Virus record (IMG/VR): IMGVR_UViG_3300021093_006163
Strand: one strand, 5' to 3'
Source of the DNA: an uncultured virus (IMG/VR IMGVR_UViG_3300021093_006163)
Lineage: Duplodnaviria > Heunggongvirae > Uroviricota > Caudoviricetes
DNA: 64,000 bases
Every line of letters begins with the position of its first letter. Position 1 is the first letter of the stretch. The notes beneath the pieces were generated by a model. It saw nothing but the letters and a program-made list of their open reading frames with translations. It did no database searches and was not told where the DNA came from. Position numbers and translations under genes: made by a program. Shown here in pieces: positions 1 to 17,800 of the stretch.

Positions 1-232
1 CGATGATGAGGAAGCCCTTCGCCTCCCCCATCAGCCTCTTTGTCGTCGCGTTGTCGTACGAGAAGTCAAGGACGACGACATTCTTACCCTTCACGTCTGG
101 GGGTGGCTCACCGTACTTCGCAGCGTGGTACTCCGACCTGTCACCGAGGAGCTTCCAGGCCGAGTAGGCTGCGCCAAAGCCGTCGGTGCAGTTTGCGTGG
201 TAGATTACAAGGTCTACGCTATGAGGGTCCAT
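1..232 (-). CDS. DHH-family phosphoesterase (NrnB/DHHA1-like), 3' end outside window
   Basis: Not in ORF track. Manual translation from ATG at 232 (overlapping the tdk stop, TAATG) gives MDPHSVDLVIYHANCTDGFGAAYSAW...VVVLDFSY...FLII, matching the YHxxCxDG and DF motifs of this family. Confidence 0.75.
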   Translation of the reverse strand, partial: MDPHSVDLVIYHANCTDGFGAAYSAWKLLGDRSEYHAAKYGEPPPDVKGKNVVVLDFSYDNATTKRLMGEAKGFLII

Positions 233-804
233 TAGAAATCCTGCACACGATTGTGGTGATGCCAGCACTTTGGCTCATAGAGCTCTGCACCGCCGATTGC
301 GATCTCGCTCAAGTCTTCGACTTTGCGTGCTGTGAAATACGCATCTGCTCCACACGTGGTGCAAACAGCAGAGCATTTCTCAACATGAGTCGCCCAGGGC
401 AAGAGCTCCTTTATCTCATCAAAAACATTGCAAGATGCTGACATCTCAATCGAGGAGATCACAACAGTAAATCCCGTTCGGTATAAAGAAATCAGAGCAT
501 CTGCAACGCCATCAATTAGAAATGCCTCATCGACAGCAATAACATCGGGGCGTTTGTCTTGTGAAGTAACAATCCTGAGAATGTCTTCACCTTTGGAAAC
601 GTTGATTGCTGGTATTTTTGCACCGTTATGTGTGCAAATCTCACTTTCAGCGTATCTGTCATCGAGCCCAGGCTTGAAAGCAAGAATTTTTAGACCCTTA
701 TATCTGAACCTATCGACAAGAGCAATGAGCCGTGTTGTCTTAGACCCCATCATAGGACCAGTAAAAACATAGAACGCAGGATTGATCATTTGAGCTTCCA
801 CCAC
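232..804 (-). CDS. tdk: thymidine kinase (likely start at 789, MINPAF)
   Basis: GPMMGSKTT P-loop, VDEAF Walker B, CxxCG zinc site, IGGAELYEPKC motif. Confidence 0.93.
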   Translation of the reverse strand: MVEAQMINPAFYVFTGPMMGSKTTRLIALVDRFRYKGLKILAFKPGLDDRYAESEICTHNGAKIPAINVSKGEDILRIVTSQDKRPDVIAVDEAFLIDGVADALISLYRTGFTVVISSIEMSASCNVFDEIKELLPWATHVEKCSAVCTTCGADAYFTARKVEDLSEIAIGGAELYEPKCWHHHNRVQDF

Positions 805-1781
805 TTTAGAGTCCTCTCAAGTCCGTCCCAGAACGTGACCTTTGGTACATATCCAAAGTCACGCTGAGCAGCGCTGTAATCTCCTAGCGTGTGCATTACG
901 TCTCCTGCGCGCCACGGCGCGTCGACTATATTAACATCTTTGAACAGGTTTCGCAGGAACTCGAGAATTTCTCGATTTGTGGTCCTCTCTCCGCAGCAAA
1001 CGTTATAACACTCCCCCGAAAAAATTCTGTCAGAAAAAGCAGAAAGAACATTGGCGTCGACGACGTTCTCAACATAGCACATATCACGAGATTGACTTCC
1101 GTCTCCATCAGATCGCAGAGAGCGACCATCAACTATCGCATTGCACCATGCAGACACTGCTGTCGAGTAAGGAGAATCTCCAAGCTGTCCCGGGCCAAAG
1201 ACGTTAAAATATCTAAGAAGCACAACATCAAGCTGATATAGTGAGCTAAAAAGTCTAGAAAAGTCTTCAAGGCAGGACTTTTGAAGTGCATACGGTGATT
1301 TTGGATTTTTAGGCTCATTCTCAGAAGTTGGCAGATTCTCGGCTCCTCCGTAAACAGAAGAAGACGAAGCAGCAACAACACGCCTGACATTTCCTACACA
1401 AGCACTCAAAAGCTCAACAGACTTCATAAGATTTTCGTCCGTTGTCTCAACAGGATGCTCCACCGAGAAAGAGACACGTGGTACTGCCGCCTGATGGAAA
1501 ACTACATCATAATATTTTTTCTGGATTCTCGACAAAATCACAGGAGAGGCAAAATCGTTTTCAATGACCCAAACCTGGGTGTCGGGTCTTTCGTGATTCT
1601 GAGATTCATAGATTTCTATCAGATCTCCGATAAATGTTCTTACATTCAATTCTGATAAATTGCTTAAAAATCCGTTTGTCATGTTATCAACTACATCGAC
1701 AGTGTGGCCTTCAGAGACAAGCCTTTTTACAAGATTAGATCCGATAAATCCGGCTCCGCCGGTGACAAGTACATGTGACAT
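786..1781 (-). CDS. NAD-dependent nucleotide-sugar epimerase/dehydratase (extended SDR)
   Basis: TGGAGFIGS, ASSSSVYG, YALQK (YxxxK), LRYFNVFGP, GDGSQSRD. Confidence 0.92.
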   Translation of the reverse strand: MSHVLVTGGAGFIGSNLVKRLVSEGHTVDVVDNMTNGFLSNLSELNVRTFIGDLIEIYESQNHERPDTQVWVIENDFASPVILSRIQKKYYDVVFHQAAVPRVSFSVEHPVETTDENLMKSVELLSACVGNVRRVVAASSSSVYGGAENLPTSENEPKNPKSPYALQKSCLEDFSRLFSSLYQLDVVLLRYFNVFGPGQLGDSPYSTAVSAWCNAIVDGRSLRSDGDGSQSRDMCYVENVVDANVLSAFSDRIFSGECYNVCCGERTTNREILEFLRNLFKDVNIVDAPWRAGDVMHTLGDYSAAQRDFGYVPKVTFWDGLERTLKWWKLK

Positions 1782-1818
1782 GTGTTATACGATAGCTCCT
1801 ATTCTCAATATTAACACG

Positions 1819-2691
1819 CTACGGGATGATGTGCGCACAATTTAGATTTACTCGCATCTTAATGCCTCTTTGATTGGCACCAATCAGTGATTGCGCCTTA
1901 AATCCGATGTGAACAAGAGCATCAAGATCTATTTTCAAATTCTTCGGTACGTTGGTTGACCTGCACGTGACATCGAGAATGTCGTGTTCTGGTCTGTGAA
2001 CAAATCGAACATACGATATGCAGCTTGAATTTGCGGTGATAAACCTTCTTGATCCAGCAGCCTGACCAGATTCAAGCTCTTTTACGATCCTTCCCATAAG
2101 ATCGTCGTTGATCTGCCTATAGTATTCCTCTTCACCCGGTACTTCGAGAGTGCTTGGTCCAAGATCATCAGACTGAGATGCAGTCACTTCAAACTTCAAA
2201 TCAAGGGATTCATTTCGCCCTGTGGAAGCAAGCGCATTCTCTGCGTATTTTGCCAGCTTTTCCGTGTTCACAAATTCTCTGCTGCAAACAATATCACGAA
2301 TAGCCTCAGGATCGGGCGCCGTCTTGCATACAATCACAGAAGGATGGTCTCTCAGCGCCAGAGATTGCGCATTGAATTCTTCCCACGTGGTCCGTAGTGA
2401 ACCAAGGTCGTGCATCTCATCGCCCCTGGCAGCAAACCGCGCTTCGACTGTGCTCCACTCCGGTGCAAGAAAGACGACAATATTGTTCAAATCATCGAGG
2501 AATCGATGAAGCTCTCCGGCCTCGCGGCTATTGTCCCGACCAAAGATCTTTGGGTACACAGCACGACTGATGTGACCTCGATCTCGGATGTCATACCTAA
2601 AGTTTGTCGACTTGTGGAGTTGACAGTAGAAAGTTGATTTTCCTGAGAGATCGCAACCCTCGAGCACGATCTGCCTTGTTGGTAGCCTCAT
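1819..2691 (-). CDS. dNMP kinase-like domain fused to a truncated thymidylate-synthase-fold domain
   Basis: N-terminal LEGCDLSGKST and DRGHIS; C-terminal SRR...SC...RSTNV...D...AH aligns by eye to ThyA SRR/PC/RSCD/N/TH motifs. Confidence 0.65.
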   Translation of the reverse strand: MRLPTRQIVLEGCDLSGKSTFYCQLHKSTNFRYDIRDRGHISRAVYPKIFGRDNSREAGELHRFLDDLNNIVVFLAPEWSTVEARFAARGDEMHDLGSLRTTWEEFNAQSLALRDHPSVIVCKTAPDPEAIRDIVCSREFVNTEKLAKYAENALASTGRNESLDLKFEVTASQSDDLGPSTLEVPGEEEYYRQINDDLMGRIVKELESGQAAGSRRFITANSSCISYVRFVHRPEHDILDVTCRSTNVPKNLKIDLDALVHIGFKAQSLIGANQRGIKMRVNLNCAHIIP

Positions 2692-5600
2692 ACCTGAATC
2701 TTCCTCATCTTGTTGTTGTTTGTGGAGAATCCCCAGTTCGGATCCTTGCTGACCTCTGCGATGTAGATCTCATAGTGGTTCAGCGGCATCTCACCCCAGA
2801 TCCGCAGGTTGACTGTCTGCATCTCATTATCGCACACCTGGGCACGAATGAAACCCTTGCCGTTCTTGGTCTTCTTTACATTGAAGTCCTTCACCAGGAA
2901 CCAGCAGATCCCCTTCTCGTTGTCGCCAACCTCAGTGATCGGTCCGACCTGTGCCTTTTTGATCTTCGCGATAATGTCCTCGGGGAACATCAGGTCCTCA
3001 CGGGAGGTTGATGTAAGATCGAAGTACATCTTCAGCTTCTCAGATCGAGTCCAGTCAGGAAGATTCTCATAGTTCTCGAACAGCTTCCAGAACGTGACCT
3101 CGGGCTGACGACCTTCCTTGAGCAGCTTCTTCATCTCAGTCTTAGTGTATCCGAACCGGCCACGCCTGAGGATGTCGTAGTTCTTCTCCTCAGTCAAGGT
3201 CGCCAGAAGCTGCCTGTGATTTGTCACCTTTCCAGACTTGAAGTCTTCCAGAGATCGTAGCGCCTCGACACTGCAAAGAGAGGTGAGTGTGGTCTTGTTC
3301 ACCTTTGAGTGCCTCCATGCACCGTCCTCTGTATACAACATGGATTCAATCGAGACATAGGGTCGATTATCCATGATCTCAGCGACAGCAGTCTCACCAA
3401 CACCCTTGATCGAGGATAGAGGTGGAACGAAGCCCTGTAGCTCGTGACTGTACATCCAGACAAGACCCGAGCTGTTAATATCAGGCGGATGGATCTTGAA
3501 TCCCTGCTCCTTGATCTCAGTGGCAACCTTGGCAAGGCCATCAGGATTAGTGTTCTCGGACTGAAGGCAGGTGGCAAGCCACTCCTCCTCGTAGTGCTTG
3601 TGAAGCCAAGCAGCGTAGTAGGAATCGACAGCGTAAGATACAGAGTGCGACTTGTTGAAGCCGTAAGCTGAGAATGCCTCGATTGTCTCGTAGAGCTCCG
3701 TAGCATCCTTGACGGACATACCGTTCAGATTGACCGCGCCATCAACGAACCGTTTGCGCAGATCCTCGCGTTCCTTTGCCTTCTTCTCATTCATGTCAAG
3801 GGACTTCTTGACCAGTGTCTTACGCATCTGGTCAGATTCGCCTGGATTGAATCCAGCAAGCTTCTGTGCCAAGAGCATGAACTGCTCCTGGTAGACGACG
3901 AATCCGTGCGTCGGACCAAGCACATCCTTCAGAAGCGGATGTTTGTAGGTTGCAAGGCCCTTGTTCTTGACCTCGACGTACTTCTTGTGGACGCCTGCGG
4001 CGAGAGGGCCCGGACGGTAGATAGCTGTGATGGCAGACAGATCCTCGATCGAGGTGGGCTTTGCCTCGAGGCAGAACTTGCGAGCACCGCTGTTGGTGAA
4101 CTGGAAGACCTGAGTGAACCGGCCCTCGTGGTAGACGTGCTTCCAGACATCCTGATCATCCAGCTCATTGTAACGGATGTTGAGGTTCTTGTCGAAGAAG
4201 TCCTTGACCTGCGCAAAGGTCGGATCCTTGATGCCATGCCGCGTCTGGAGGACCATTCGAATGCAGTCCTCGACCATCTTCAGAAGCGAGAGACCAAGGA
4301 AGTCGAACTTGAGGAAGCCGTTCTCCTCGAGATGCCGGAAGTTCATGCCCTCAGACCACGGTGTCTGGATCTCGCCGCGAACTGAGATGACCGGCATATG
4401 GTCCTCAAGCTTTGGGCAGATGAGAACACCGCCAGCATGTCGACCGATCGACCTCGTCTCCATGAAGAGCGACTGGACCTGTTCACAGAGCTCCGGATGC
4501 TTCTCCATGAAGATCTTGTACTTCTCAGAGTACTTCATGCAATCAGCGTGCGATAGGACGTAGGTGCTCTTTTCCTCGTGGTCACCCAGTGCCCTGTGCA
4601 TGACGTCATCCTGCAGCGGCCCAGTGACCTCGTTCACCTCCTCGAATGGAATACCGTGGAACTTAGCGATGTCCTTGATCAGGGACTTCAACTTCAGAGT
4701 GTTGAAGTTCGAGACCGGAACAACGGAGTCCTCACCAAACAGCTTGCGCGCCTCATCGATCAGGACATCACGATCACCGACGTCAGTGTCGATGTCGGGC
4801 CACGCGACCTTGTGGCGACCGAGGAACCTCTCCCAGAGGAGGTCGTACTTGATCGGATCGACCGATGTGATGCCGAGGACGTAGTTGACCAGAGATCCTG
4901 CACCCGATCCGCGGCCAGGACCGATTAGGGTCCGATGCTGCGCGCGGTCGAAGACGAAGTAGAGCGTGAGGAAGTAGTTCTCAAACTTGAGATACTTGAT
5001 GTCATCAAGTTCCATCTTCAGTCGTTCAACGTACTCAGGCTTCGTGTGAAGACCGAGCTCAACAAGTCCTTTCTTGCACATGTCAAGGAGCTGGTTGAAA
5101 GCCGTCTGCTCAGGCTTGTTGAAGCTCGGGAGCTTTGCAGAAGAATCGAAGGTGACCTCCTCGCACTTTTCCCACGCAATGTCATGAGTCCGCTCGATCG
5201 ACTCCTTGACCAGGAGCTCAGTGTCCCTGTAGAAGTCATGCTGGTCCTTGTGAGCCAGGTACTCATCCCACATCTGCTGTGCATTCTTGGGATACAGCTC
5301 GCACTTGAGCTCATCAAACGTGGGAAGCACCTGCTTCTGCATGTCATCAGATCGACCGCCCATGCGGCCCAACTTCTTGTAGAGCTCACGCGCCTGCCAG
5401 ACATTCGGGCTGTAGTAATGAGAGTCCGCAGTGGCGATGGTCTTAATTCCGGTGCGCTTTGAGAGCTCAATCAGGTGTTTGTTCGTCGTGTGCTGGATGT
5501 CGAGCTTGTTGAATTGAAGCTCAAGGAAGAAGTTATCAACACCGACAGCATCGACAAATTTGTCAGTGTGATTCTGGAGCTCACGCTGAATCTGCTCAAA

Positions 5601-6271
5601 AGGCTTCTTCAGCGCCTCGCCTCGGATTGAAGTAGAGGCAAGCAGACCACCGACACAAGCTGTGGAGACAACGAGTCCCTCGCTGTGCTGCTTGAGCATG
5701 TTGTAGTCGATGCGAGGAAACTTGTAATAACCCTCGACATAGGACCGTTTGACAAGATTGAACAAGTTCTTGAGACCAGTTCGATTCTTGGCAAAAACGA
5801 CCAGATGATACCGCCGCTTCCATTCATCAGCATCATCAGCATCTACGGTCTTGGTCTCCTCCTCGTCCTCGACAACAAGGCCGCCGGTCACCTCCTCCTC
5901 GGCAAGGATGTCAACCTGTTCGGGCTTCCCCTCCTCGTTCTTGGCGCGCTTCGCCTCGAAGTGAGCAGCACGCTTCTTCTCCCAGTCGAGAAGGGACGGA
6001 ACGAAGTAGAACTCAACACCGTAAAGCTGCCGGTACTTTCGGCCCTTACCCTTTATCTTCTTGGAATAGGTGTGTGCATGAGCGAGACCATTGCCGCTGC
6101 CGTGATCGGTCAGCGCCCAAGCATCCATTCCGTTCTGGAGGACGAAGTCGATGTGACGATCAGGATAGCCAAGTCCATCATTTACAGCATTCAGGAGAAG
6201 CCGGAGTGCGCATGCAAACCGACAAATCGGTTAGGCGCACAAACCGGCTTCTCAGAGCTCCAGTTTGACAT
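2688..6271 (-). CDS. dnaE: DNA polymerase III alpha subunit; main ORF 2688..6128, N-terminal PHP motif on a separate frame at 6191..6271
   Basis: ALTDHG, GPGRGSGAGSLV, PDIDTD, KFDFLGL, YGFNKSH, C-terminal OB fold. Upstream 26-codon ORF ends FVGLHAHSGFS-stop. Confidence 0.93.
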
Positions 6272-6307
6272 TTTTATTCTTCCCTACGTGTGAATTTTTA
6301 TATCACT

Positions 6308-6336
6308 ATCTTACAATGAAATCAAGTAGAATACAA
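6308..6336 (-). promoter_or_regulatory. sigma70-like promoter upstream of dnaE
   Basis: TTGTAT-N17-TAAGAT on the minus strand. Confidence 0.45.
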
Positions 6337-6337
6337 G

Positions 6338-6838
6338 TTAGCTGTCGAAAGCAATGACCATTCGGATCTTATCAGATAGATCCTGGTCTCCTACAATCTC
6401 AGCAAGCGTTCCTGCCCAGGTCATCTCTTTGTATTGATTCTCAGGACCTGGCAGAAAGATTCGAGACACTTCCATCTTAGGATCTGGAATGGTCTCATGG
6501 TAGTGGTCAGCAGCAAAGAGATCCTCGGGCGCAACGTTCTCACCGTCGTCCTTCTTGTACATCAGGAAGAGCTCGCGATTTGCTTGCTTGACCTCTTCGG
6601 GTGTCAACCACGTGTGGCTGTGAAGATCGCTCCCCCAGGCATCAACAAGCTGATGCCAGGCATTAGAGCTGTTATCAGGGACGCCTCGGCTTTCTGTGCC
6701 TAGATTTCCAGATGGGTACCTGACACCAGCGATGAGACCGAACCACCAGTAGCTTCGAGCATCATTGATGAGTTCAAATGCAATCCAGGCGCCCTCGGGC
6801 GACCTGAATTCCCAAAATCCGTGGATATCGCAACCCAT
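6338..6838 (-). CDS. hypothetical phage protein (MGCDIH... type)
   Basis: ORF with AGGAG RBS and upstream TGcTAGAAT extended -10; MGCDIH start and C-terminal FD motif. Confidence 0.75.
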   Translation of the reverse strand: MGCDIHGFWEFRSPEGAWIAFELINDARSYWWFGLIAGVRYPSGNLGTESRGVPDNSSNAWHQLVDAWGSDLHSHTWLTPEEVKQANRELFLMYKKDDGENVAPEDLFAADHYHETIPDPKMEVSRIFLPGPENQYKEMTWAGTLAEIVGDQDLSDKIRMVIAFDS

Positions 6839-6868
6839 GTCCTGGCTCCTATGGATTCATTCTAGCAC

Positions 6869-6904
6869 AAAAATGGACCGTCGCACGAGAGCGTGCGAGG
6901 TCCA
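6869..6904 (-). terminator. Rho-independent terminator
   Basis: Minus strand TGGACC-TCGCACG / CGTGCGA-C-GGTCCA hairpin followed by TTTTT. Confidence 0.7.
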
Positions 6905-6928
6905 GCCTGTTTTATCGCTGACCAGCGA

Positions 6929-7534
6929 TTAGTATCCGCCTGGGCCCTCGTTCTTTCTCGCAGGCTTTCCCTTCACAGCCATGATGGCAGCGTTGACGAC
7001 GGCGTCAGGGTTGTCTGCCCAATTTGCCATCTTCTTGAGCTCTTCATAGGAGGCACCCTTCTCGATGGCCTTTGCCATTGCTGATGTTGCCTTGTATGTC
7101 TCACCGCGGTACTTGCCCTTGACAACACGACCGTTCTTCTTCTTGCCTTCCATCATTGGCATGTCCATGTATCCTATTGCGCTGTGAGAAGACATTGGCA
7201 TTTCAGGAGGCATTTCCGGCTGATTGAACTTGTGATATTCATACCTAAGGTAGTCATGCACAGTCCCCATCATTGAATCAATAACAGCAATCTTCTCCTG
7301 CACCCACTCAGGAAGGTCATCGTAATCGTTGATCATGTCATGAAGCTCATGTGCCTTTTGACCTGTTGTGAACAGATTTGACTTAATCATTCCGGTCTCT
7401 TCTCCCGGAGAATTATCATGGAAAACTCTACCCTGCGGAGTTCCCATGTGATCCTGATGCATCTGGTCAATGCCCATCTCATGCATCTCTCTGAGAACCA
7501 TCTTTCTAATCTTTAGTCTATCAATTGGTGACAT
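6929..7534 (-). CDS. hypothetical protein, possible internal head protein
   Basis: ATAATTA motif upstream; N-terminal KIRKMVLREM helix; LPEWVQEKI motif. Confidence 0.7.
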   Translation of the reverse strand: MSPIDRLKIRKMVLREMHEMGIDQMHQDHMGTPQGRVFHDNSPGEETGMIKSNLFTTGQKAHELHDMINDYDDLPEWVQEKIAVIDSMMGTVHDYLRYEYHKFNQPEMPPEMPMSSHSAIGYMDMPMMEGKKKNGRVVKGKYRGETYKATSAMAKAIEKGASYEELKKMANWADNPDAVVNAAIMAVKGKPARKNEGPGGY

Positions 7535-7583
7535 TGCTCGCCTCTGTGCTCTAATTATACACCAGAGGCGAGCAATTTCCTAC

Positions 7584-8018
7584 TTACTCAATGTGACCGT
7601 AGTAGGGCTCAAAGAGAGGCTTCCCTGCCTCAACGGAGCGCTGCAGGTAATCGCGGAGCTCGTCGTAGGATGTGGTGACCTTGACACCGGACTGTGCCAG
7701 CATCAGGTTGAAGTTGCCGGTGAGCCCCTGGGCGAAGTAGACGATCGGAACATTGGCATTGTATGCCACGCCGGCCTCAAAGATCGTCCCCATGTCCTTG
7801 TCACGGGTGTTGCACAGGACGAAGTCTGCAGTGCGAATGTGATCGACATTGCCCTTGAACGTGTCCTTCTGGACATCGAGCGGCGCGCTGGGCGGGCAGA
7901 TGAAGATCTTGCGAGGTGAGGCCACATTTAGGCCGAGCTCTTCGAGCAGAACTTCCAGTGCCTCGACCTCTTCGAGTGCCTTGGGGGTGAACCATCCAGA
8001 TGCGAGATAAACCTTCAT
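7584..8018 (-). CDS. nucleoside 2-deoxyribosyltransferase / nucleotide N-hydrolase family (likely start MKVYLASG)
   Basis: KVYLASGWF, ADFV, DMGTIFEAGVAY, NLML motifs. Confidence 0.82.
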   Translation of the reverse strand: MKVYLASGWFTPKALEEVEALEVLLEELGLNVASPRKIFICPPSAPLDVQKDTFKGNVDHIRTADFVLCNTRDKDMGTIFEAGVAYNANVPIVYFAQGLTGNFNLMLAQSGVKVTTSYDELRDYLQRSVEAGKPLFEPYYGHIE

Positions 8019-8019
8019 G

Positions 8020-8970
8020 TTATGCTTCCTTATTGTTCCTGTAGTTAGTAACGATTGTATCAATGTCTGAGAGGACCTCGTTCCAGTGCTTGCGGAAGTG
8101 AGGAACGCCACCACCAGTTCCGTTCATGTCGTCACGAGTCGCCTGATAGATCGTGTCATCTGGGTGATAGGTGAGGTGCTTCTCACTGTCATCATCGGGC
8201 CAGTAGAGGTTGGTACCCGTGCCATTGCGGAACGTCTTGATGTAGTGCCAAGCAGGCTCGCGAAGGTTGATCGCAACGTGTGCCTCAGGGAAGACTCGGA
8301 GGATCTCACGTGCCATGAGAGCCGCGAGCATGTTGTCCTCCTCGGGCTGGATCTGCTTGTCCTGGCGCTGCTTGATGAACATGAAGGCATCCCTGATGTT
8401 CATGCGCATGTAGTAGAAAGTCTCGAGGCACTTCGGGAGGATATGACGAGCATCCATGAGAGAGATCTTCTGGGAGTCGACCATATCAACGTAAAGTGCC
8501 TTTGCATCCTCTACGTGATTCTTCCAGCGCTTGTAGAACTCCGGGCTATTCTGGATAGAGCCTGGAACAAGGCTGCGCTCGTGAGAGAGCCAGCGGTCAC
8601 CTGTGCACTGTGCAGCAAAAGATCCAGCACGATGGCGGATGAGATGAGTCACAGTTTGTGTATCAATTCCGCCAACAAGGAACGTGAGACCAATCAGCTC
8701 CATTGCTGCCGGAAGCGCACGACCTGCAAAGACATCCTCCAGGGTCTTTGAGAGATCCGCATCAGAAGCCTCAGCATAGGGAACATGCTTGTCAGCCCAT
8801 GTGGACTTTACGAAACAATAAACGGCCTGGCGGATTGTCTTTGGATCAGGGCTGTCTACGAGCTCGAGCTTGAGTGCATCGAGGCTGTTGATAAACTCAG
8901 TTGTAGGCCGCTCGTCGAAACGAATGGCCATGGGAAGAGTAATCGGTTGAAGATCAAGATTTTGAGGCAT
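8020..8970 (-). CDS. divergent ThyX-family flavin-dependent enzyme
   Basis: HLIRHRAGSFAAQC (RHR motif) and DARHILP; Cys at the usual Ser position. Confidence 0.72.
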   Translation of the reverse strand: MPQNLDLQPITLPMAIRFDERPTTEFINSLDALKLELVDSPDPKTIRQAVYCFVKSTWADKHVPYAEASDADLSKTLEDVFAGRALPAAMELIGLTFLVGGIDTQTVTHLIRHRAGSFAAQCTGDRWLSHERSLVPGSIQNSPEFYKRWKNHVEDAKALYVDMVDSQKISLMDARHILPKCLETFYYMRMNIRDAFMFIKQRQDKQIQPEEDNMLAALMAREILRVFPEAHVAINLREPAWHYIKTFRNGTGTNLYWPDDDSEKHLTYHPDDTIYQATRDDMNGTGGGVPHFRKHWNEVLSDIDTIVTNYRNNKEA

Positions 8971-8979
8971 TAATTTCTC

Positions 8980-9897
8980 CTATCGAAGATTATCGATGAT
9001 TTTGGTCAAGTTTTCAACTAGAATCACACCCTCTTGACGCTGGAGTGATTTATTGTAGGGCTGAACGGGGCTAAAGGTCTTGAGGCCGTGGGAGGCAAAC
9101 TCTGCTGCATGCTTTGGCGAGTCATCAACGCAAAACGCAACGTGCCCAGCAAACTTTGACTGAATGATCCAGAGGAACTTCTCTCCGCTGAAAGCAACGT
9201 CATCAAAATAGAGACCTGAATTATGAAGCCAGCGTGCTGTGTCAAAAAGACAAAGAGGATTATCTGCAGGACGTGCTGTGAGGATCTGAACCCAATATCC
9301 GAGGCGCTGAAGCTCATGTGTGAACTCGGCGGCGTCACTGACTGCAGGAATGTCGCGAAGCTTGCGCTCTGCTATGAACTCTTTAAAGAGGCTCTCTGTG
9401 TTATGTCCTAGATTTTGGGCTGCTGATGCAGCATAATATTCCGGACAGTCATACGAGATTACTGCTCCCTTTGTCTCAGCAAGCCACTCAAAGAAAGCGC
9501 GTCTAAACTCTGCAAGGACATCATCCATGTCAAGGATGACTACTGGACGACCATCCCAGGTCTTCTTTGAGAGATTGTGCCTGAAATGAAGGTAGGCATC
9601 CTTGTCCTCGAAGGCATCAATGAACTCTCTCTCATTGATGTCCCAAACATTCATGATTGCCACAAGGTACCTGATCACGTCAATGCTCTCATACAGGATC
9701 TTTGTCCGATCTGGCATCTTGCGATCCATCCGGTGATCCTTGAAATTGATCGATGACACAAGATCTGATACTTCAGAATGCAATTCAAGAGCGAATGATT
9801 TTGTCATCTGCTCCTTTTCTGCATCTGTGAATGTCCTACTATCGAAGAAAAGATTAGAGAATGCACGCTGACATTGCAGTATCTCTTTTAGGGTCAC
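8980..9897 (-). CDS. all-alpha NTP pyrophosphatase (dUTPase/MazG-like) fused to HAD 5'(3')-deoxyribonucleotidase
   Basis: LHSEVSDL...YESIDVIRY in the N-terminus; LDMDDVL, ILTARP, VDDSPK in the C-terminus. Confidence 0.78.
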   Translation of the reverse strand: MTLKEILQCQRAFSNLFFDSRTFTDAEKEQMTKSFALELHSEVSDLVSSINFKDHRMDRKMPDRTKILYESIDVIRYLVAIMNVWDINEREFIDAFEDKDAYLHFRHNLSKKTWDGRPVVILDMDDVLAEFRRAFFEWLAETKGAVISYDCPEYYAASAAQNLGHNTESLFKEFIAERKLRDIPAVSDAAEFTHELQRLGYWVQILTARPADNPLCLFDTARWLHNSGLYFDDVAFSGEKFLWIIQSKFAGHVAFCVDDSPKHAAEFASHGLKTFSPVQPYNKSLQRQEGVILVENLTKIIDNLR

Positions 9898-9906
9898 GTT
9901 AGTCCT

Positions 9907-10278
9907 CTAGTATTTGCTCTTAATCCTATCGTGAATAATCCTGTCTTTATTAACGTATGCCTCAAAAAGCTCATCTGGGGTAATGCCCATGATGATGAGG
10001 AGGGAGAGAAAGTAGTTGAAAGAGTCAACCATCTCCTCCTTGAAGGCAGCTCGATCAAAATCTCGAATCTCTGTCTGTCGATGAGACTTTGCATTCTTCA
10101 GCTCTTGCACCGCCTCAAAGACCTCCTCGACACCTCGAAGTGCAAGATCTCTGAGATGCTGCTGCGTAGCCTTGTTTGTCAGATCAACAGGCATCTCTGG
10201 ATAGACATCTGGGACCTGCTTCTGTAGAGCCATCATAAAGGCTCTGCGAAGGTCAAACATCTGATCGAGCTTGTCCAA
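9907..10278 (-). CDS. all-alpha dUTPase/MazG-like NTP pyrophosphatase
   Basis: VEEVFEA...KSH...EEMVDSFNY...YVNK...R motif. Confidence 0.8.
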   Translation of the reverse strand: MDKLDQMFDLRRAFMMALQKQVPDVYPEMPVDLTNKATQQHLRDLALRGVEEVFEAVQELKNAKSHRQTEIRDFDRAAFKEEMVDSFNYFLSLLIIMGITPDELFEAYVNKDRIIHDRIKSKY

Positions 10279-10279
10279 A

Positions 10280-10519
10280 TTATTCCTCTAGAGACTCAGG
10301 TGGTGACATGGCTGCAATGGCAGCAATCATTCTGTTAAGATTCTCATCAAAGTTGCTGAGATAGGCGGTATCAGGAGAAAGCTGACCTCGTTCATCAACA
10401 ACCAGTCGAATCGTCCTGAGGTTGTCAACGATGTCAGTGCCTGATAGAATCGCGATCTGAAGAAGCTTCGCAATCTGTGAGATTGTGTCATCTGAAAGTC
10501 CGTATACTGATGTTGTCAT
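10280..10519 (-). CDS. hypothetical protein
   Basis: Compact ORF with AAGGA RBS in operon context. Confidence 0.7.
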   Translation of the reverse strand: MTTSVYGLSDDTISQIAKLLQIAILSGTDIVDNLRTIRLVVDERGQLSPDTAYLSNFDENLNRMIAAIAAMSPPESLEE

Positions 10520-10529
10520 TTTATTTTCC

Positions 10530-11333
10530 TTAATTCTGAATTTCTGGGATCCAGAAGGTAGTCCGTCCGTCCTTCGTCGTCTCTCTCTTTACCTCTCTAC
10601 CTTCTGGATCCTTGAGCTGATTGTAGACTGCAAAGCGGCGACTGTAATCTCCCTTTTTTCCATCGAATCCTGAAAATGTGTAAATGGTAGCGCCACCAGT
10701 CTCATATGACTTCCTAATTACATTTTTAATCACAAAATTGAGAGTTTTCAACTCATTTTCAGATAAAGAACTAGTCATTCTATGCGGGCTAAGTCTACTA
10801 AAATACAAGCATTCAGACTTTAGATAGTTTCCTACTCCGCTGATTATAGACTGATCCATAAGAACTTCTGCTAGCGTTCTATTCTTCTTCTTAATAGATC
10901 TAATAAATACAGAATCTAATACATCCTCAGCAAGCATGTCTGGGCCTAAAGTCTTCAGCTTCTCTGCCAGTGAATCTTTTTTGTCAATTAGTTTTAACGT
11001 GCCGAAGTTTCTCATATCATTGAAGTAGATCCTTCCTCCGTCGTCCAGATCAAACTGAATTCTGCTGTGCTTTCTCTCGACAGCTGACCAGCTTCCGGTC
11101 ATTCCTAAAGTATTGAAAACGTGCTTTCCATTTTCAAGACTAATGAAAATGAACTTTCCCTTACAGCCAACCTCAGAAACTTTAATATTTAGAAAACGAT
11201 TCAGATTTTCCCAACCTTCAGGGTTCTTCTTTGTGTAGCGACCAGATAAGATCTGCACATTCACAATGCCTCTGTCAAGGATGTAATTTCTAATTCCATC
11301 AGACACAACTTTTACTTCAGGTCCTTCAGGCGT
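10530..11333 (-). CDS. mutM: Fpg/Nei-family DNA glycosylase; probable ACG start at 11333
   Basis: In-frame PEGPEV upstream of the ORF-track start; KGK, LGMTGSW, NDMRNFG, LGPD, DQSIISGVGNY (H2TH), zincless finger GRTTFW. Confidence 0.88.
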   Translation of the reverse strand, partial: TPEGPEVKVVSDGIRNYILDRGIVNVQILSGRYTKKNPEGWENLNRFLNIKVSEVGCKGKFIFISLENGKHVFNTLGMTGSWSAVERKHSRIQFDLDDGGRIYFNDMRNFGTLKLIDKKDSLAEKLKTLGPDMLAEDVLDSVFIRSIKKKNRTLAEVLMDQSIISGVGNYLKSECLYFSRLSPHRMTSSLSENELKTLNFVIKNVIRKSYETGGATIYTFSGFDGKKGDYSRRFAVYNQLKDPEGREVKRETTKDGRTTFWIPEIQN

Positions 11334-11763
11334 AGCACACCTCCTTTTTTTGTTGAGAATTTACCCACTTCCAGTAATTCTTTAGCGCGCCATCCTTCGG
11401 TTCAGGAATTCCTGCCCAGTTGTGGCGACAGAAAATCTCATATGCTGCAGCTGCATACTCTCCGACACCATGAAGATCTTTCGGCTCAGACCCTTCCCAG
11501 GAAAGATAGTCAGATGACATCTTGATTAAGGTCTTTGCACGTCGCTCTCCAAGTCCCAGATTCTTTACAAGTTCATGCACATCATCAAATCGAGCACATG
11601 ACGCTTGCTTTGCACTGGGCCATCTATCAAAGAAACGCCACATGATTGGCTCAGCATCGACGCGCTTGGTTAGATTGCAGAAGATACAAACAACAAAAAT
11701 ACGCCAGGGGTCATGCTGGACGTGCTCTTGAATGAGATTATATGGCGAATGCGGTGCGTGCAT
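11326..11763 (-). CDS. MBD4-like HhH-GPD DNA glycosylase
   Basis: SPYNLIQE..HDPWRIFVVCIFCN, LHGVGEY and PKDGALKNYWKW resemble the MBD4 catalytic domain. Confidence 0.8.
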   Translation of the reverse strand: MHAPHSPYNLIQEHVQHDPWRIFVVCIFCNLTKRVDAEPIMWRFFDRWPSAKQASCARFDDVHELVKNLGLGERRAKTLIKMSSDYLSWEGSEPKDLHGVGEYAAAAYEIFCRHNWAGIPEPKDGALKNYWKWVNSQQKKEVCYA

Positions 11764-11808
11764 GTCATATAATAAAGTAAAAATATGATTTTTATAAATT
11801 GAGACCTG

Positions 11809-12081
11809 TCAAGAGGTTTTTGGAAGCTTCTTTAAAAGACTTCCTGCCCATTTTGGTGCCTGATCGATGTAGACCTTTAGCGCATATCTGTGGGCCCGGC
11901 GTCGATCCTGATCTTTCTCTTTCATCGCGTGATGAACAACAGAGCTATAGATCGACCTAAATCGACGGCTCTCCTTGTCGATTTCATCTTCGTCTCTGTC
12001 TGATTTCTCAAGCATAGCTCTAAAGAACCTTATCACCCTGCTTGAGATCTTGTCAGGCTTCGGTGCGTACTTCGATGGCAT
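11809..12081 (-). CDS. hypothetical protein
   Basis: ORF preceded by ATAGTTA motif. Confidence 0.6.
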   Translation of the reverse strand: MPSKYAPKPDKISSRVIRFFRAMLEKSDRDEDEIDKESRRFRSIYSSVVHHAMKEKDQDRRRAHRYALKVYIDQAPKWAGSLLKKLPKTS

Positions 12082-12090
12082 AAATTCTAA

Positions 12091-12345
12091 CTATCGATGT
12101 ACACCGCAGTGAATGCGACTGTCTCTGTGACGGTGACAATCTCTGGCAGGTGCCGGAGGAGATACGTGACGAACTTGCATTGCAATCCATCTTCCTGGCA
12201 CCCAGTATCCCCAGCGATCATAGTGTCCAGGTACCCAGCGTGAGGCAGGAGCTGTGTACACGACAACCTGTGCGTAAGGAGCTGGTGGATGCTTAACCGG
12301 GTGAGCGTGTGCTATGCAAGAAAAGAGAAGTCCGATTAAAAACAT
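12091..12345 (-). CDS. small exported protein with WVPG(H/R)(Y/W) repeats (YXWGXW-like)
   Basis: Hydrophobic N-terminus ending AHA; WVPGHY and WVPGRW; AGGAGG RBS. Confidence 0.6.
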   Translation of the reverse strand: MFLIGLLFSCIAHAHPVKHPPAPYAQVVVYTAPASRWVPGHYDRWGYWVPGRWIAMQVRHVSPPAPARDCHRHRDSRIHCGVHR

Positions 12346-12386
12346 TTTGCCTCCTAATATTAGTACCGGCTAAGCAATCAAAATAT

Positions 12387-13019
12387 TCAATAGCCAAATG
12401 CCTCAATTGTGTTTCGGAACGGATTTCCTGGGATTTCTTTGACCTGCTTTAGCATGTCCTCTGCGAGCCAGCAGATCTCGCGCTGAGCATCTGGCTTTAG
12501 TCGAAGACCGAGAAAGTGAGCAAATGATCTCCAGTTGAACATTATGTCCATTGTGATCTGATTGCCGTATGGAAGGTAAAATCGAGCAGATTCCTTCGCG
12601 CGCTTACGATCCATCCCACTATCCACCAGTCGCTTTAGGGTATCATGGTAGCGCATGAGAGCGTCCTCCATGAACGCGATGTAACGTGCCTGCTCCTCTA
12701 GCGACCAGTCCTTGGGCAGATAATACTTGTCGTCCTTGAGCTCTTTATAGCGGGAGCTTTCTGCATTAACAGATACGCCAACTCGATGCTTGATGACATG
12801 TATATGTGTAGCCACATCGGTTGTCACAAGAAAATGCAATGAACTCTTCTCAAAAACCGTGTGGTGCCCATTGTCGGCAAGCATTTTCAAAAGCTGCGGC
12901 ATTCTACCACGCTTCTCGTCTGAAAGATCTCGGGATGTAGATGTCCACGCGGACAGCGCATGAGTCTCATCTGAGCCATACCAGCCTGTCAGTTCTACCT
13001 TATTTTCTTGAAATGGCAT
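12387..13019 (-). CDS. thyX: flavin-dependent thymidylate synthase
   Basis: GHHTVFEK, KHRVGVSVNAESSRY, ESARFYLP, NWRSFAHFLGLR..AQREI. Confidence 0.9.
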   Translation of the reverse strand: MPFQENKVELTGWYGSDETHALSAWTSTSRDLSDEKRGRMPQLLKMLADNGHHTVFEKSSLHFLVTTDVATHIHVIKHRVGVSVNAESSRYKELKDDKYYLPKDWSLEEQARYIAFMEDALMRYHDTLKRLVDSGMDRKRAKESARFYLPYGNQITMDIMFNWRSFAHFLGLRLKPDAQREICWLAEDMLKQVKEIPGNPFRNTIEAFGY

Positions 13020-13224
13020 CCCTTATTTGCTCCCTTGCATATTTGTCCCAAACTATCTCAAATAACCACTGAAGAAGCGTGAGTGACATACCCGATACAA
13101 GAACAATCATTGATGATGCAACAATGTCTCCTGTAAAAAGGTATGTCACCCACGCTCCAAACAGCATTGAGAACACTCTCCAGACGACTGTCTTGATAAG
13201 CAGCTCAAAGCTGTTTGAGTTCAC
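13000..13224 (-). CDS. small membrane protein (DUF2061-like)
   Basis: LIKTVVWR...YLFTG...FEIVW pattern; two hydrophobic segments. Confidence 0.65.
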   Translation of the reverse strand: MNSNSFELLIKTVVWRVFSMLFGAWVTYLFTGDIVASSMIVLVSGMSLTLLQWLFEIVWDKYAREQIRDAISRK

Positions 13225-14246
13225 TATGATGCCTCGAGAAGGAGGCGAGTGACAACGTAGGGATCAATGTTTGCGCATGGACGCCGATCCTCAAAATACC
13301 CGCATCCTGCTTTTGCAACGTGCAATGGAATTCTGATAGAGGCACCCCTATCTGAAACACCGCACCTAAACTCCTTGTATGAGCAGGTCTCATGCTGCCC
13401 AGTTAGTCTCTGTTCAATGCCATGCCCATAATGGGGGATGTAGTCATCATGCAGCCTTCTCAGTATGCTGATGATTCGATCAATCTCTGTCATTCCTCCA
13501 GACTCGTCACGAGTTGCAGCAGTCGACCAATTCGTGTGAGCACCAGCACCATTGAGCTCTCGAACGGGCTTTGGATCAAGCTTGGCGTTGATGCCATGCT
13601 TCTCTCCGATCCTATACAAGAGCCACCTTGCCAGCCACAGATGATCAGAAACTTTGACAGGATCACCTGTTCCAATCTGAAACTCCCACTGGCCGGGCAT
13701 AACCTCAGCGTTTAGGCCGCAGATCAAAAGCCCTGCATCCATGCATGCCTTCATGTGGTCCTCAACCAGATCACGCCCACACACTTCATCAGCGCCAACC
13801 CCGCAGTAATAGGGTCCTTGCTGCGGAGGATACCCGCCATCAGGCCACCCAAGAGGAGTGCCACCTCTGAAAAGCGTGTATTCCTGCTCGATTCCGCACA
13901 TTGGAGCCTTGCTGCTCTTCCTCTCCATCATCTTGACAAGATGGTGACGTGTGTTTGTCCTGTGAGGAGTTCCGTCTGCATTATAGACTTCACAAAGAAC
14001 AAGAATTGCAGGCCGATCTGCTGATCTTATTGGATCCTTGCAGAAAGAGACAGGAACAAGAATGCAGTCGCTCTTGTCTCCGGGTGCCTGGCCAGTTGAA
14101 GAGCCGTCAAAGGTCCACTGAGGAATATCAGATATTCCTAGGGAATCGCCCCCAAACTGAAAAATTTTTGTCTTACTTCTTAGTTTAGAAGTGGGAGTCG
14201 TTCCATCTATCCAAATGTATTCTGCTATTACGTTTAACATTTTCAC
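13224..14246 (-). CDS. glnII: glutamine synthetase type II
   Basis: AEYIWIDG, FDGSST, GIEQEY, NAEVMPGQWEFQ, NGAGAHTN, RLTGQHET, EDRRP. Confidence 0.93.
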   Translation of the reverse strand: MKMLNVIAEYIWIDGTTPTSKLRSKTKIFQFGGDSLGISDIPQWTFDGSSTGQAPGDKSDCILVPVSFCKDPIRSADRPAILVLCEVYNADGTPHRTNTRHHLVKMMERKSSKAPMCGIEQEYTLFRGGTPLGWPDGGYPPQQGPYYCGVGADEVCGRDLVEDHMKACMDAGLLICGLNAEVMPGQWEFQIGTGDPVKVSDHLWLARWLLYRIGEKHGINAKLDPKPVRELNGAGAHTNWSTAATRDESGGMTEIDRIISILRRLHDDYIPHYGHGIEQRLTGQHETCSYKEFRCGVSDRGASIRIPLHVAKAGCGYFEDRRPCANIDPYVVTRLLLEAS

Positions 14247-14849
14247 CTACTCAAAACTGTACTTTATGTCCACTTTGATCTTCATGTTTGGCGACCTCAG
14301 ATGATTTGCGAGGCCGTGTCGCAAAGCTTCGTTTGCATCAATGTACCAATCAGCGTGACTCTTCTCGTGGATGATGTTGAGGAAATACTCAGGCTCCTTT
14401 CCGCAGTTGGCTGCCATCATTCGATAGACCTTCTGGTTGAGCCGTTCTGCCTCCTTTGAGTCTGCCTTAATATCCTCAATCTTTCCAATGGCTCCAGACG
14501 AAACATCGTGAATCATGATCGTAGCGTCGGGATCCATAAATCTGTATCCCTGAGTCCCAAAGGAAAACAGGATCGCTCCGCAGCTCATTGCCTTGCCTTC
14601 AACGATTGTAGCAATTGTAGTTCGAGATGACTTGATGTTACCAATCATTGACATGAGCGAATAGACCTGACCACCGTAAGAGTCAATGATGATTGGAACA
14701 ACAGGCTGCCCGGTTGATTGTGCCAGCGACATCTGCTGTGCAAACTCCTTCGCGGAGTCCTCATCGAACTTGTTGACCCGAATTATTACCGGGCTAGATC
14801 GAAGCTCGACTTCTTTGACAAGAGGAGACACACACGTGATTATGTTCAT
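14247..14849 (-). CDS. clpP: ClpP-like serine protease
   Basis: IDSYGGQV, GKAMSCGAIL, MIHD, and WY..ANEAL..GL motifs. Confidence 0.85.
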   Translation of the reverse strand: MNIITCVSPLVKEVELRSSPVIIRVNKFDEDSAKEFAQQMSLAQSTGQPVVPIIIDSYGGQVYSLMSMIGNIKSSRTTIATIVEGKAMSCGAILFSFGTQGYRFMDPDATIMIHDVSSGAIGKIEDIKADSKEAERLNQKVYRMMAANCGKEPEYFLNIIHEKSHADWYIDANEALRHGLANHLRSPNMKIKVDIKYSFE

Positions 14850-14884
14850 GAATACAAGGATACTGCGTGCGTGGCTGTTTTATC

Positions 14885-17800
14885 CTATGAGCACTTGGAA
14901 TATGAGCAATTCTTGCAGGAAAGACAGCCTTCCTGGTACACAAGCTCGGTATTTCCACATTGCGGGCACCCCTTCTCTGATGATGCAGTTCCATCCTTGA
15001 TGTACCCCTTCAGCACTCTTGCAATGACTCTTGCAAAAGAGAACATGTCGCTGTTCTTGTCCTTCTGGAGCTGCTCAACAACGTAATGAAGAGGAACCTC
15101 ATGACGGAGCGCAAGAGACACTGTCCGAGAGAATGCGCCCTGTGTGGGATTATCAAACAGGTTGATGATGTCCTTAAAGACGAGATTCTCGTCGTCGCCA
15201 ACAGGAACCTGCAAATTGTACGTGGTTACACCCTCGCGCTTGCCGTTCTTGACAAGAATACCAGACTTATACTTCTTTGGAATCTCAATATTCTCAGGTA
15301 TTCCGCAGAACACCTCGTATGGCTTTCCATCGAGGAGACCGACAAGGACAAGCCAGGATTCTGATGCTTCACCGTTTCGAACATTTGCACGGTGAATATC
15401 ACAGGGAAGAGACTTGGCACGCTTAGGAATGAGCCTTCCATCGTCTACCTTCTTTTCCTTCCTTGACTCATCTGCCTGGACTAGAACACCTGTACGACAT
15501 CCATCCCGGTAAACAGTGAATCCCTTACAACCTGACTTCCAAGCCTTCATGTAGACGTCATTGACGGTCTCACGGGTAGCTGAATTGGGGAGGTTGCAAG
15601 TTTTTGATATTGAGTGATCAACCCATCGCTGCGCAGCTGCCTGGATCTCCACGCTCTTCACCCAGTCGATGTCATTTGCTGTGCTGCCCCAGTATGGGCT
15701 CTCCTGCGGATCCGTTTTACCTGTCACGTCCATCCACTTCTTGAACCAGTGATGGTAGACCGTGTACTCCTGCCACTTATCACCCATCGGGTCTATGAAA
15801 TCAACTCGTGACGCAAAGTCGCCCTGAGTTATCTTCTTTCTGCGCTTGTATGAGAGGAGGAAGGCAGGCTCGATGCCAGATGTTGTCTGTGTGAGAATAG
15901 AAACAGAACCGACTGGTGCTGTGGTGGTGAGTGCGATGTTGCGTCGACCTGTGGTCTGCCACATGTTGCGCGTCTCCGCGCTAAGCTCGCTGACTGCATC
16001 CATGACATTGTTTAGATACCTGTGGTCCTTCTCCTTCTCGTAGTCCCAGACAGGGAATGCTCCGCGCTCCTTAGCCATGACGAGCGAGGAATAGTGTGCC
16101 CACCGCGCCAGGTTGCGGTATATTACCTCTGTCATTTGAATTGAATCGTCGGAGCCGTACTTGAATCCAAGCGCTGCAAGCGCATCACCAAGCCCTGTGA
16201 TGCCGAGACCAGTACGGCGGCCGTTGAGACCGGCGGCTCTGATCTTCGCCCAGAGGTCGCGCTCAATCTTCTTCACGTGCTCAGGCTGCGGGTCACGATC
16301 GATCTTTGTAAGCACTCGATCGACACATTCAACCTCAAGATCGACAAGGTCATCCATGAGACGTTGCGCTGCGTAGACAACCTTTCCGAATCTCTCAAAG
16401 TCAAAGCCGGCATTTCCCGTGAAGGGCTCATTCACGAATGTGGTGAGATTAACAACCATAAGGCGGCAGCTGTCATAGGGACTGAGTGGGATCTCACCGC
16501 ATTGACGACTCGCAAGAATCAGGTCAGCCCTGTTCCTGAACCTCTCGATCTCCTCGCTGCCAACCCTGAAGCAGAAAGTGTGAACATCGTCAACGGTTCC
16601 GTTGTAGACATCCTCACTTCCTGCAGGCTCAACTGAGATTACACGATGGTTGAAGCTCTCGGCAGCGGACTTGAGATCGCTCCACGAGGCGAATCCATTC
16701 TGGGTTCCGATGCGAGGCGAGCATCCAGCCTGCTTGCAAGCAGCCTCCCACTCCTTAAAGAAGGGCATCCTGCTCAGATCGCTGCGAACAGACGTGAACA
16801 CGCTGAGCTGCGCCTGACGCTTCTTTTCACCTCTGGCAGTATGCATCGATCTTAGTGTCGCAGCTCGACGCTGATTCTTTCCAGCTCGTCGATTAGCGTA
16901 GGTGTTGGAGCAAGAATGACTGCAGAAAGAAACCTCGCGTCTGTCATACTCTGACCAGAACGAGCCCTTGCACCACTCACATGTCTTTTCCACGTGAAGC
17001 TCGCCGTTGGTCAATTGCCAGCGATAGCCGTTGGACTCTGCGTGAAGAGCGCGTCGTGCCATACGAGGATCCATGTCGCAGATATCAGAATCGATACCGC
17101 AAGAAATTGCGATTTCATAGCAGGCTTCAGAGAAACTCTTACCACCAAGCCTAAAGTTATTCAGGAAGGTCGGGAAGTTGTTCTCCTTGGCGAACGCCAC
17201 CCAGTCCGAGAGCGTCACGCGTCGATTGATGCTAATCGTCAGCTTCATGATAGCGTCGACGATCGAATCATTTGAGGCTTCGTAGGCACGAGGATTGTTC
17301 ATGCCACCCACTGACTTCGACATTTTTTCAGAGTATTCGGCGAACTTGACGGGGTCTGCCTTGATCTTGAAGATCGGATTATTCTCGCCCTTGATCAGAT
17401 CAGCGTGATAGCGATCATGAGCTTCCTTGCTCATCAATACGAGATTACTCGGATGATTGTTTAGAGAATTGAAGTCAGCGTGATGAATGACCTCATCCTT
17501 TCCAATCTTTTTGCCGTTGAAGTGTTCCCACATAATGCGGTGAGCAGCCTTCCAGGTTCGATTTCCACCACTTCGAATCCAGCTGTAGTCCTGGGATGCC
17601 GTCGCGCGGAGCCCTGGCATTGCCTCATTGAACTTGCCATTGACATGATGAGAGATCCAGAGCGAATCACCGGTGATCAGGTCTTTCACCTCACGCTCAC
17701 TTCCATCGCGCATGATCATCTTGTGATTGCCAGTTGCTCGGAACGAGTGTCCACCCTCGACGGTCACACGATAGATCTGTGCGCTCTTTCCAGTGACACG

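Follow-up and report, generated by a model that had tools for sequence, protein, structure and literature searches.

Phages that replace a base of their DNA, such as T4 with hydroxymethylcytosine (hmC) and SPO1 with hydroxymethyluracil (hmU), combine a thymidylate synthase (TS)-type enzyme with a dedicated deoxynucleoside monophosphate (dNMP) kinase and a pyrophosphatase, encoded next to the polymerase. The same logic is found in the DNA described here, a stretch of 64,000 nucleotides from an uncultured virus of the Caudoviricetes (IMG/VR record IMGVR_UViG_3300021093_006163, in the following the window), except that the modifying enzyme is probably of the ThyX rather than the ThyA type, namely ThyX2, a divergent paralogue of flavin-dependent thymidylate synthase (FDTS). 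A ThyX-type enzyme is also found in phage SP-15, whose DNA contains 5-(4,5-dihydroxypentyl)uracil; it carries two Thy1 genes, and gp130 was guessed to be a hydroxymethyl-dUMP synthase (PMC5977210). SP-15, Carin-5 and YerA41 are the three confirmed phages with linker-modified thymidine (PMC12686479, PMC13697223), and a 2025 paper calls the pentyl-linker pathway of SP-15 undeciphered. The 5-hydroxy-dCMP synthases (HY126 AfhB, RB69 gp48, DLP3 gp80) and T4 gp42 have the ThyA fold with Cys146, Arg166-Ser167, N177D and His207; N177D is described as the dCMP determinant and D169N as the signature of the 5-hydroxy-dCMP synthases (PMC13326640, sections 24 and 28). The gene set around ThyX2 works like the pool-level base replacement of T4 and SP-15, and it falls outside all characterised families. 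We consider it highly probable that the DNA of this phage carries some modified pyrimidine.

ThyX2 and the genes around it

The window holds two ThyX genes. ThyX1 is a member of the canonical FDTS (TM0449; PF02511, TIGR02170): it scores above the TIGR02170 cut-off of 87.9 bits and has the folate residue His53 and the ES-RY loop intact, with KHR replacing RHR. ThyX2 reaches 47 bits, below this cut-off, and has about 90 additional C-terminal residues. Its predicted structure, with a predicted local distance difference test (pLDDT) score of 79.7, has the ThyX fold (Foldseek E about 1e-9). ThyX2 was compared with T. maritima ThyX (TM0449), the numbering being fixed by mutant structure entries. The RHR flavin motif and the equivalents of Arg147 and Arg174 are retained. 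On the other hand, His53 is replaced by Leu86, Arg74 by Thr108, Glu86 by Ala120, Ser88 by Cys122, Arg90 by Gly124 and Tyr91 by Asp125, each in 26 of 26 aligned sequences (the query and 25 proteins spread over the top 120 of a family of 1,059 at E<=0.001). The Cys motif is kept in 144 of 145 distinct locus copies. His53 is described as stacking on folate and Tyr91 as required in the transfer of the carbinolamine; a formaldehyde shunt is also described for ThyX (PMC11940539). Because the flavin and arginine residues are retained and the folate and one-carbon residues are lost, ThyX2 very likely binds a flavin and a pyrimidine nucleotide, not folate.

The first-pass annotation had assigned the supply of dTMP to one ThyX. 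This agrees with the canonical nature of ThyX1 and with the relatives, where a canonical ThyX accompanies ThyX2 in 14 of 25 partial records, in G027 (100% complete) and in G030 and G031. A search with two patterns confirmed no ThyX2 relative in 185,579 prokaryote species genomes, and we found no paper on the ThyX2 subfamily, the kinase-fused mini-TS (see below) or a link between ThyX and nucleoside deoxyribosyltransferase (NDT). With a family of this size and no cellular relative found, an unfamiliar base may be widespread in the DNA of aquatic phages.

ThyX2 lies in the pyrimidine-metabolism gene set that the first-pass annotation had reported near dnaE. Every gene named there was confirmed in place; of the three TS-type genes announced, ThyX1 and ThyX2 stood, and the third proved to be a truncated ThyA fold of about 150 residues (mini-TS), not a full TS. 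The genes are as follows.

232-804, minus strand: thymidine kinase (Pfam TK, 6e-35)
786-1781, minus strand: NAD-dependent epimerase/dehydratase (1e-46); conserved neighbour in the clade, not core to the module
1819-2691, minus strand: YorR-like dNMP kinase (residues ~1-140) fused to the truncated ThyA fold (~141-290); no Pfam match, AlphaFold model
2688-6271, minus strand: DnaE polymerase; the homologous N-terminus begins near 6271, out of frame
7584-8018, minus strand: NDT-family enzyme (2e-12); true start at 8018, one base past the ThyX2 stop
8020-8970, minus strand: ThyX2, divergent ThyX paralogue and proposed base-modifying flavoenzyme (Thy1, 2e-19)
8980-9897, minus strand: all-alpha pyrophosphatase-like (dUTPase_2-like) domain fused to an NT5C-type HAD nucleotidase (NT5C 1e-6; dUTPase_2 0.011)
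9907-10278, minus strand: small all-alpha NTP pyrophosphatase of the dUTPase_2/dCTPase type (1e-4)
10530-11306, minus strand: Fpg/Nei-family glycosylase
11326-11763, minus strand: MBD4-like HhH glycosylase (6e-35 to MBD4)
12387-13019, minus strand: ThyX1, canonical flavin-dependent thymidylate synthase (TIGR02170, 99.9 bits)

Both pyrophosphatase assignments are weak profile matches (PHROG 1e-18 and 5e-5), and a PDB sequence search gave no meaningful match for either protein.

Conservation of the neighbourhood was assessed in the best 80 of 222 IMG/VR matches, which are related phages with near-duplicates and not independent events. Upstream of ThyX2 the small pyrophosphatase was present in 77 of 78 loci, the HAD fusion in 73, the Fpg enzyme in 46 and the MBD4-like enzyme in 40. 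Among the 56 loci with 9 kb of downstream sequence, all had the NDT and 50 had dnaE. The kinase fusion was followed by the epimerase in 61 and by thymidine kinase in 65 of 69 clade loci. In the close relatives L001-L006 and L013 a 6-8 kb block of genes that look structural (~11000-18600) separates ThyX2 from the NDT, which is not so in the window. S-adenosylmethionine (SAM) methyltransferase genes adjoin ThyX2 or the NDT in L009 (11801-12556), L164 (8022-8891) and L172 (6722-7696) and possibly tailor the base.

The combination of pyrophosphatase, phosphatase, ThyX2, NDT and kinase extends beyond these 80 loci to unrelated phages. The cultured Geobacillus siphovirus GR1 encodes an NDT, an HD protein, a glycosyltransferase, a stand-alone kinase, a nitroreductase, ThyX2 (45% identity), a stand-alone mini-TS whose gene overlaps the ThyX2 stop, DnaE and a dUTPase; no epimerase is annotated in it, and the searched passages of the GR1 paper report no DNA chemistry. 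The complete record G028 has MazG, NDT, HD, ThyX2, kinase, DnaE and a glycosyltransferase, and no mini-TS was found in it. Three further loci (L164, L167, L168) carry more distant ThyX paralogues (14-22% identity, the Cys kept in two of three) together with a mini-TS, a kinase, a HAD protein and a Rossmann-type oxidoreductase. L165 and L166, considered as module carriers, were rejected as they use a full-length TS, and L170 is unrelated. The surplus enzymes are thus found together in relatives as well as in phages unrelated to them, and because the set is conserved across loci its clustering is beyond chance. The module is real, conserved and mobile.

Among the conserved neighbours of the clade that belong to annotated clusters, none could be identified as a glycosyltransferase. 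In G027, of which 245 of 275 open reading frames (ORFs) were scanned, a sugar cluster at a distance of about 100 kb contains glycosyltransferases and a carbamoyltransferase. Epimerase and glycosyltransferases are not core to the module. The sugar cluster (L177-L178) comprises GT2, GT4, GT6 and GT11 enzymes, a GDP-mannose dehydratase, the carbamoyltransferase and a radical SAM protein; G027 also has a PrkA-SpoVR-DUF444 operon. The rest of the genome of the window phage was judged from relatives, the nearest record being a 13.7-kb fragment without ThyX2.

A candidate pathway and the NDT link to SP-15

We tentatively propose that ThyX2 places a carbon substituent, probably derived from a pentose, on C5 of dCMP. 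That the substituent is indeed a pentose-derived chain is possible rather than probable; a methyl or hydroxymethyl group is a rather improbable product. In the scheme, each step of which we infer from folds, residue swaps and co-occurrence, dCTP would be swapped for a C5-substituted dCTP before replication, with ThyX1, thymidine kinase and dCMP deaminase holding T canonical. The all-alpha pyrophosphatases would convert dCTP and dUTP to the monophosphates, and the HAD enzyme (HD in other phages) and an NDT of the Asn type would break nucleotides down, freeing a pentose. ThyX2, its folate site lost, would use FAD and Cys122 to join the pentose aldehyde (or, less likely, a one-carbon unit) to C5 of dCMP and would reduce the product, in the way that ThyX handles formaldehyde. 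The YorR-like kinase would then phosphorylate the modified nucleotide, DnaE would incorporate the modified dCTP, and the MBD4-like and Fpg enzymes would repair its deamination and oxidation products. The fused folate-less ThyA domain may bind a cytosine nucleotide via Asp255 and Cys224 in an accessory role (selection, finishing or proofreading).

The first-pass annotation had the surplus enzymes make a modified, possibly sugar-linked pyrimidine. Their co-occurrence in relatives supports this, and the proposal is refined here: the evidence leans to cytosine, and any attached sugar would more probably take the form of a C-linked chain supplied through the NDT than of an O-glycoside made by way of the epimerase.

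The role given to the NDT draws on a comparison with SP-15, Carin-5 and YerA41, which share with the window a second divergent ThyX, an Asn-type NDT and often an adjoining HD phosphatase or pyrophosphatase. SP-15 and Carin-5 also have a separate canonical TS as seen here, the linked NDT and the canonical TS being features derived in this analysis. In the SP-15 record gp127 (NDT), gp129 (SDR) and gp130 (Thy1) stand together. A search with gp130 gave 10 phage records, including Carin-5 and YerA41, and the loci of 7 of the 9 distinct phages were examined. An NDT was located in the flank of six of the seven (two in the profile, four outside) and about 11 kb away in Carin-5. In each of the three phages whose pentyl-linker thymidine is proven, gp130 is thus accompanied by the same Asn type of NDT as ThyX2 is here. 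The NDT of GXN1 is 40% identical to that of the window. The gene annotated as a mannosyltransferase in YerA41 (gp086, L293 9380-9916) actually encodes an NDT-family protein, and SP-15 gp130 (L208 45670-46911) appears to contain two ThyX-like halves.

At the position of Asn56 in the window NDT, 6evs, 7m5h and wild-type CtNDT carry Asp. Asn is found in each of the 10 NDTs linked to a divergent ThyX, and Asp in the second, unlinked NDT of GR1. Ribose label reportedly enters the SP-15 chain, judging by the title of Walker and Mandel (1978). A preprint proposes this Asn as a gatekeeper for ribonucleosides and describes that NDTs hydrolyse nucleosides when the acceptor base is missing. PMC13326640, PMC12686479, PMC13697223 and PMC7824862 make no mention of a deoxyribosyltransferase.

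gp130 was considered as a ThyX2 orthologue and rejected, since the two share only a patch of 32-41 columns with hhalign probabilities of 11-30% (0.3% with a single sequence). An SPbeta-like match was weak (HMM 39.5 bits). The SP-15 system further differs from that of the window in that gp130 is another, longer paralogue, the base is uracil, GC-only palindromes are depleted and an SDR is present, which the window module lacks. Its polymerase is a UDG-fused family A enzyme; the polymerase adjoining the module here is DnaE, and a separate weak PolA match lies in the window at 26903-28051. Two folate-less ThyX paralogues would keep the same NDT partner, presumably because it supplies their aldehyde substrate. 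Taken together, a folate-less ThyX with an Asn-type NDT might form a general, so far undescribed route of C-C bond formation by which C5 of a pyrimidine receives a chain derived from a pentose, yielding the linker on dUMP in SP-15, Carin-5 and YerA41 (gp127, gp130 and gp129) and a new base, 5-(hydroxypentyl)cytosine, on dCMP in the abundant aquatic clade and GR1; we regard this generalisation as doubtful. The NDT link offers a concrete route to the SP-15 pentyl linker, unexplained since the 1970s, and if true it would be new ThyX-fold chemistry. The gp130 family tracks phages with linker-modified T; on this basis GXN1, phiXF1, GN1 and three Vibrio phages are predicted to have DNA of this kind.

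The modified base and competing explanations

The identity of the modified base was approached by way of palindrome usage. In all four gp130-type phages GC-only four-base palindromes were depleted, with observed/expected (O/E) ratios of 0.08, 0.42, 0.71 and 0.73, as is expected if only T-containing sites are protected. In 10 ThyX2 phages the ratios were 0.79-1.22 (most undepleted; window 1.05) and in RB69 1.07, in a test of partial genomes controlled by one C-modified phage (RB69) and zero unmodified ones. Six-base palindromes were too sparse for use. In addition, Thy1 (49 selected versus 275 unselected contigs), dUTPase_2 and NT5C were enriched in C-modified contigs in the MetaGPA study (PMC8670742, supplement 2). 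The MBD4-like glycosylase would be suited to G:T- or G:U-type mismatches arising from deaminated C5-substituted cytosine. Palindromes, Asp177, the dCTPase-type family, the MBD4-like enzyme and domain enrichment all lean to cytosine, each being weak alone. We regard cytosine as moderately likely to be the modified base.

Apart from the narrow controls of the palindrome test, several observations weigh against a chain added by ThyX2 to dCMP. T. maritima ThyX remains active with S88C. In the complete GR1 and G028, ThyX2 is the sole Pfam-detectable TS-type gene. No NDT was found in L164, L167 and L168, records that are 46-64% complete. Trypanosomal NDTs likewise carry the Asn, and ThyX2 and gp130 are, as judged from their alignment, analogues and not orthologues. 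Some ThyX2 phages avoid GTAC or GATC (G007 GTAC 0.12; G028 GATC 0.00; GR1 GATC 0.46), as RB69 does in part (GATC 0.31). In the preprint cited above CtNDT D62N was no better in ribonucleoside kinetics, and the proven product of gp130 phages sits on uracil, not cytosine. The MetaGPA signal is at domain level, with Gp23 and terminase enriched too, which points to confounding by large phages, and Nuc_deoxyrib_tr was not enriched (1 versus 50; PMC8670742). As a separate observation, G007, G027 and G028 each strongly avoid a single site, which in G027 is TTAA (O/E 0.60).

The explanation that survives best beside a ThyX2-made chain takes the mini-TS as the modifying enzyme, i.e. as a flavin- and O2-dependent 5-hydroxy-dCMP synthase like AfhB or RB69 gp48, with ThyX2 as flavin-reducing or accessory partner and distant glycosyltransferases adding the sugar. 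The fusion model (pLDDT 97.6) has AfhB (9iqu/9iqc), a dCMP hydroxylase, as its top Foldseek match. The kinase part resembles YorR kinase (Z 12.7, root-mean-square deviation (rmsd) 2.8, 136 aligned residues). The ThyA part is tied between ordinary ThyA (Z 11.2, rmsd 2.9, 139 aligned) and AfhB (Z 11.1, rmsd 3.1, 149 aligned); by sequence T4 hydroxymethylase scored best, and phmmer with the mini-TS alone found nothing in the PDB. Residues of the window protein are Arg215/216, Cys224, Arg244-Ser245, Asn247 (corresponding to D169N), Asp255 (N177D) and His287, so that it shares the fold and the catalytic set of the 5-hydroxy-dCMP synthases and T4 gp42, along with a dedicated kinase and a dCTPase-type enzyme. 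A profile-free search gave 191 relatives of the fusion, and 69 mostly full-length ones among 150 listed were aligned with the query. Cys was conserved in 65 of these 70 sequences, Arg-Ser in 66-67, Asp177 in 68 and His207 in 65; position 169, however, was Asn in 39 and Asp in 23, and among 92 locus copies 44 had Asn, 32 Asp and 14 Glu. Kinase and mini-TS were fused in 80 of 80 kinase-centred loci. Aligning the distant kinase fusions yielded no pattern that could be used.

In the work of Lee et al. nine of nine tested D169N homologues made 5-hydroxydeoxycytidine (5hodC; PMC13326640), which speaks for such an activity in the window protein, as do the arrangement in GR1, where a nitroreductase precedes the overlapping mini-TS and ThyX2 genes, and the several glycosyltransferases elsewhere in G027. 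Against it stand the variable position 169, the size of the domain (~150 residues, 151 in the stand-alone GR1 protein, versus 234-238 in AfhB), which would lack the cofactor-covering insert, the tie with ordinary ThyA, the better sequence score of T4 hydroxymethylase and the G028 genome, which keeps the other enzymes of the module with no mini-TS found. The kinase fusion, the extra ThyX2/NDT pair and the absence of an adjoining arabinose or glucose transfer cluster further set the locus apart. The Fpg/Nei enzyme would moreover attack unprotected 5-hydroxycytosine. We consider this explanation unlikely, and the mini-TS was not filed as a 5-hydroxy-dCMP synthase because its domain has about 150 residues and D169N is not conserved.

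It is likewise unlikely, to a similar degree, that, as in SP-15, ThyX2 and NDT make a C5-alkyl-dUMP which takes the place of part of the T while a canonical ThyX is also present. The cassette logic, the two-ThyX arrangement and the retained Arg174 equivalent fit this explanation. Yet the ThyX2 phages do not have the GC-only depletion of the gp130-type phages, the mini-TS is of the cytosine type, the changes Arg90 to Gly and Tyr91 to Asp would suit an amino group at C4, and the genomes are readily sequenced in standard viromes (222 matches), unlike Carin-5.

Finally, a housekeeping role is improbable, with ThyX2 as an unusual but real dTMP synthase (or a flavin oxidoreductase) and the other enzymes serving nucleotide salvage and the cleaning of nucleotide pools in a phage with a large genome. 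In its favour, every family is also known from ordinary phage metabolism (e.g. SPbeta YorR), and ThyX2 is the sole TS-type gene detected by Pfam in GR1 and G028. Against it, the folate and one-carbon residues of ThyX2 are invariantly replaced, a canonical ThyX is kept in parallel, the two-pattern search of prokaryote genomes gave no confirmed relative and the set travels together between unrelated phages.

Other features of the window

The window is part of the genome of a large, T4-like myovirus. Besides the DnaE polymerase it encodes capsid, portal and sheath proteins and gp32 of the T4 type, on the minus strand throughout. The frame of dnaE is broken by an apparent 8-base insertion near 6186-6193 relative to L001-L003, which displaces the N-terminus with the PHP motif (6186-6271); this is either an assembly error or a real lesion. 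Next to the module, 13224-14246 (minus strand) holds glutamine synthetase II (NF041605, 462 bits) and a DUF2061 gene, which are patchy among relatives. A ribonucleotide reductase whose intein contains an HNH endonuclease (14885-18823, minus strand) is present in L013 and absent from L001, L003 and others. At 20029-21240 (minus strand) an ORF with ROS/MucR, NUMOD3 and nuclease parts splits DnaB in two; DnaB is undivided in relatives, which suggests that the ORF is an intron or homing element.

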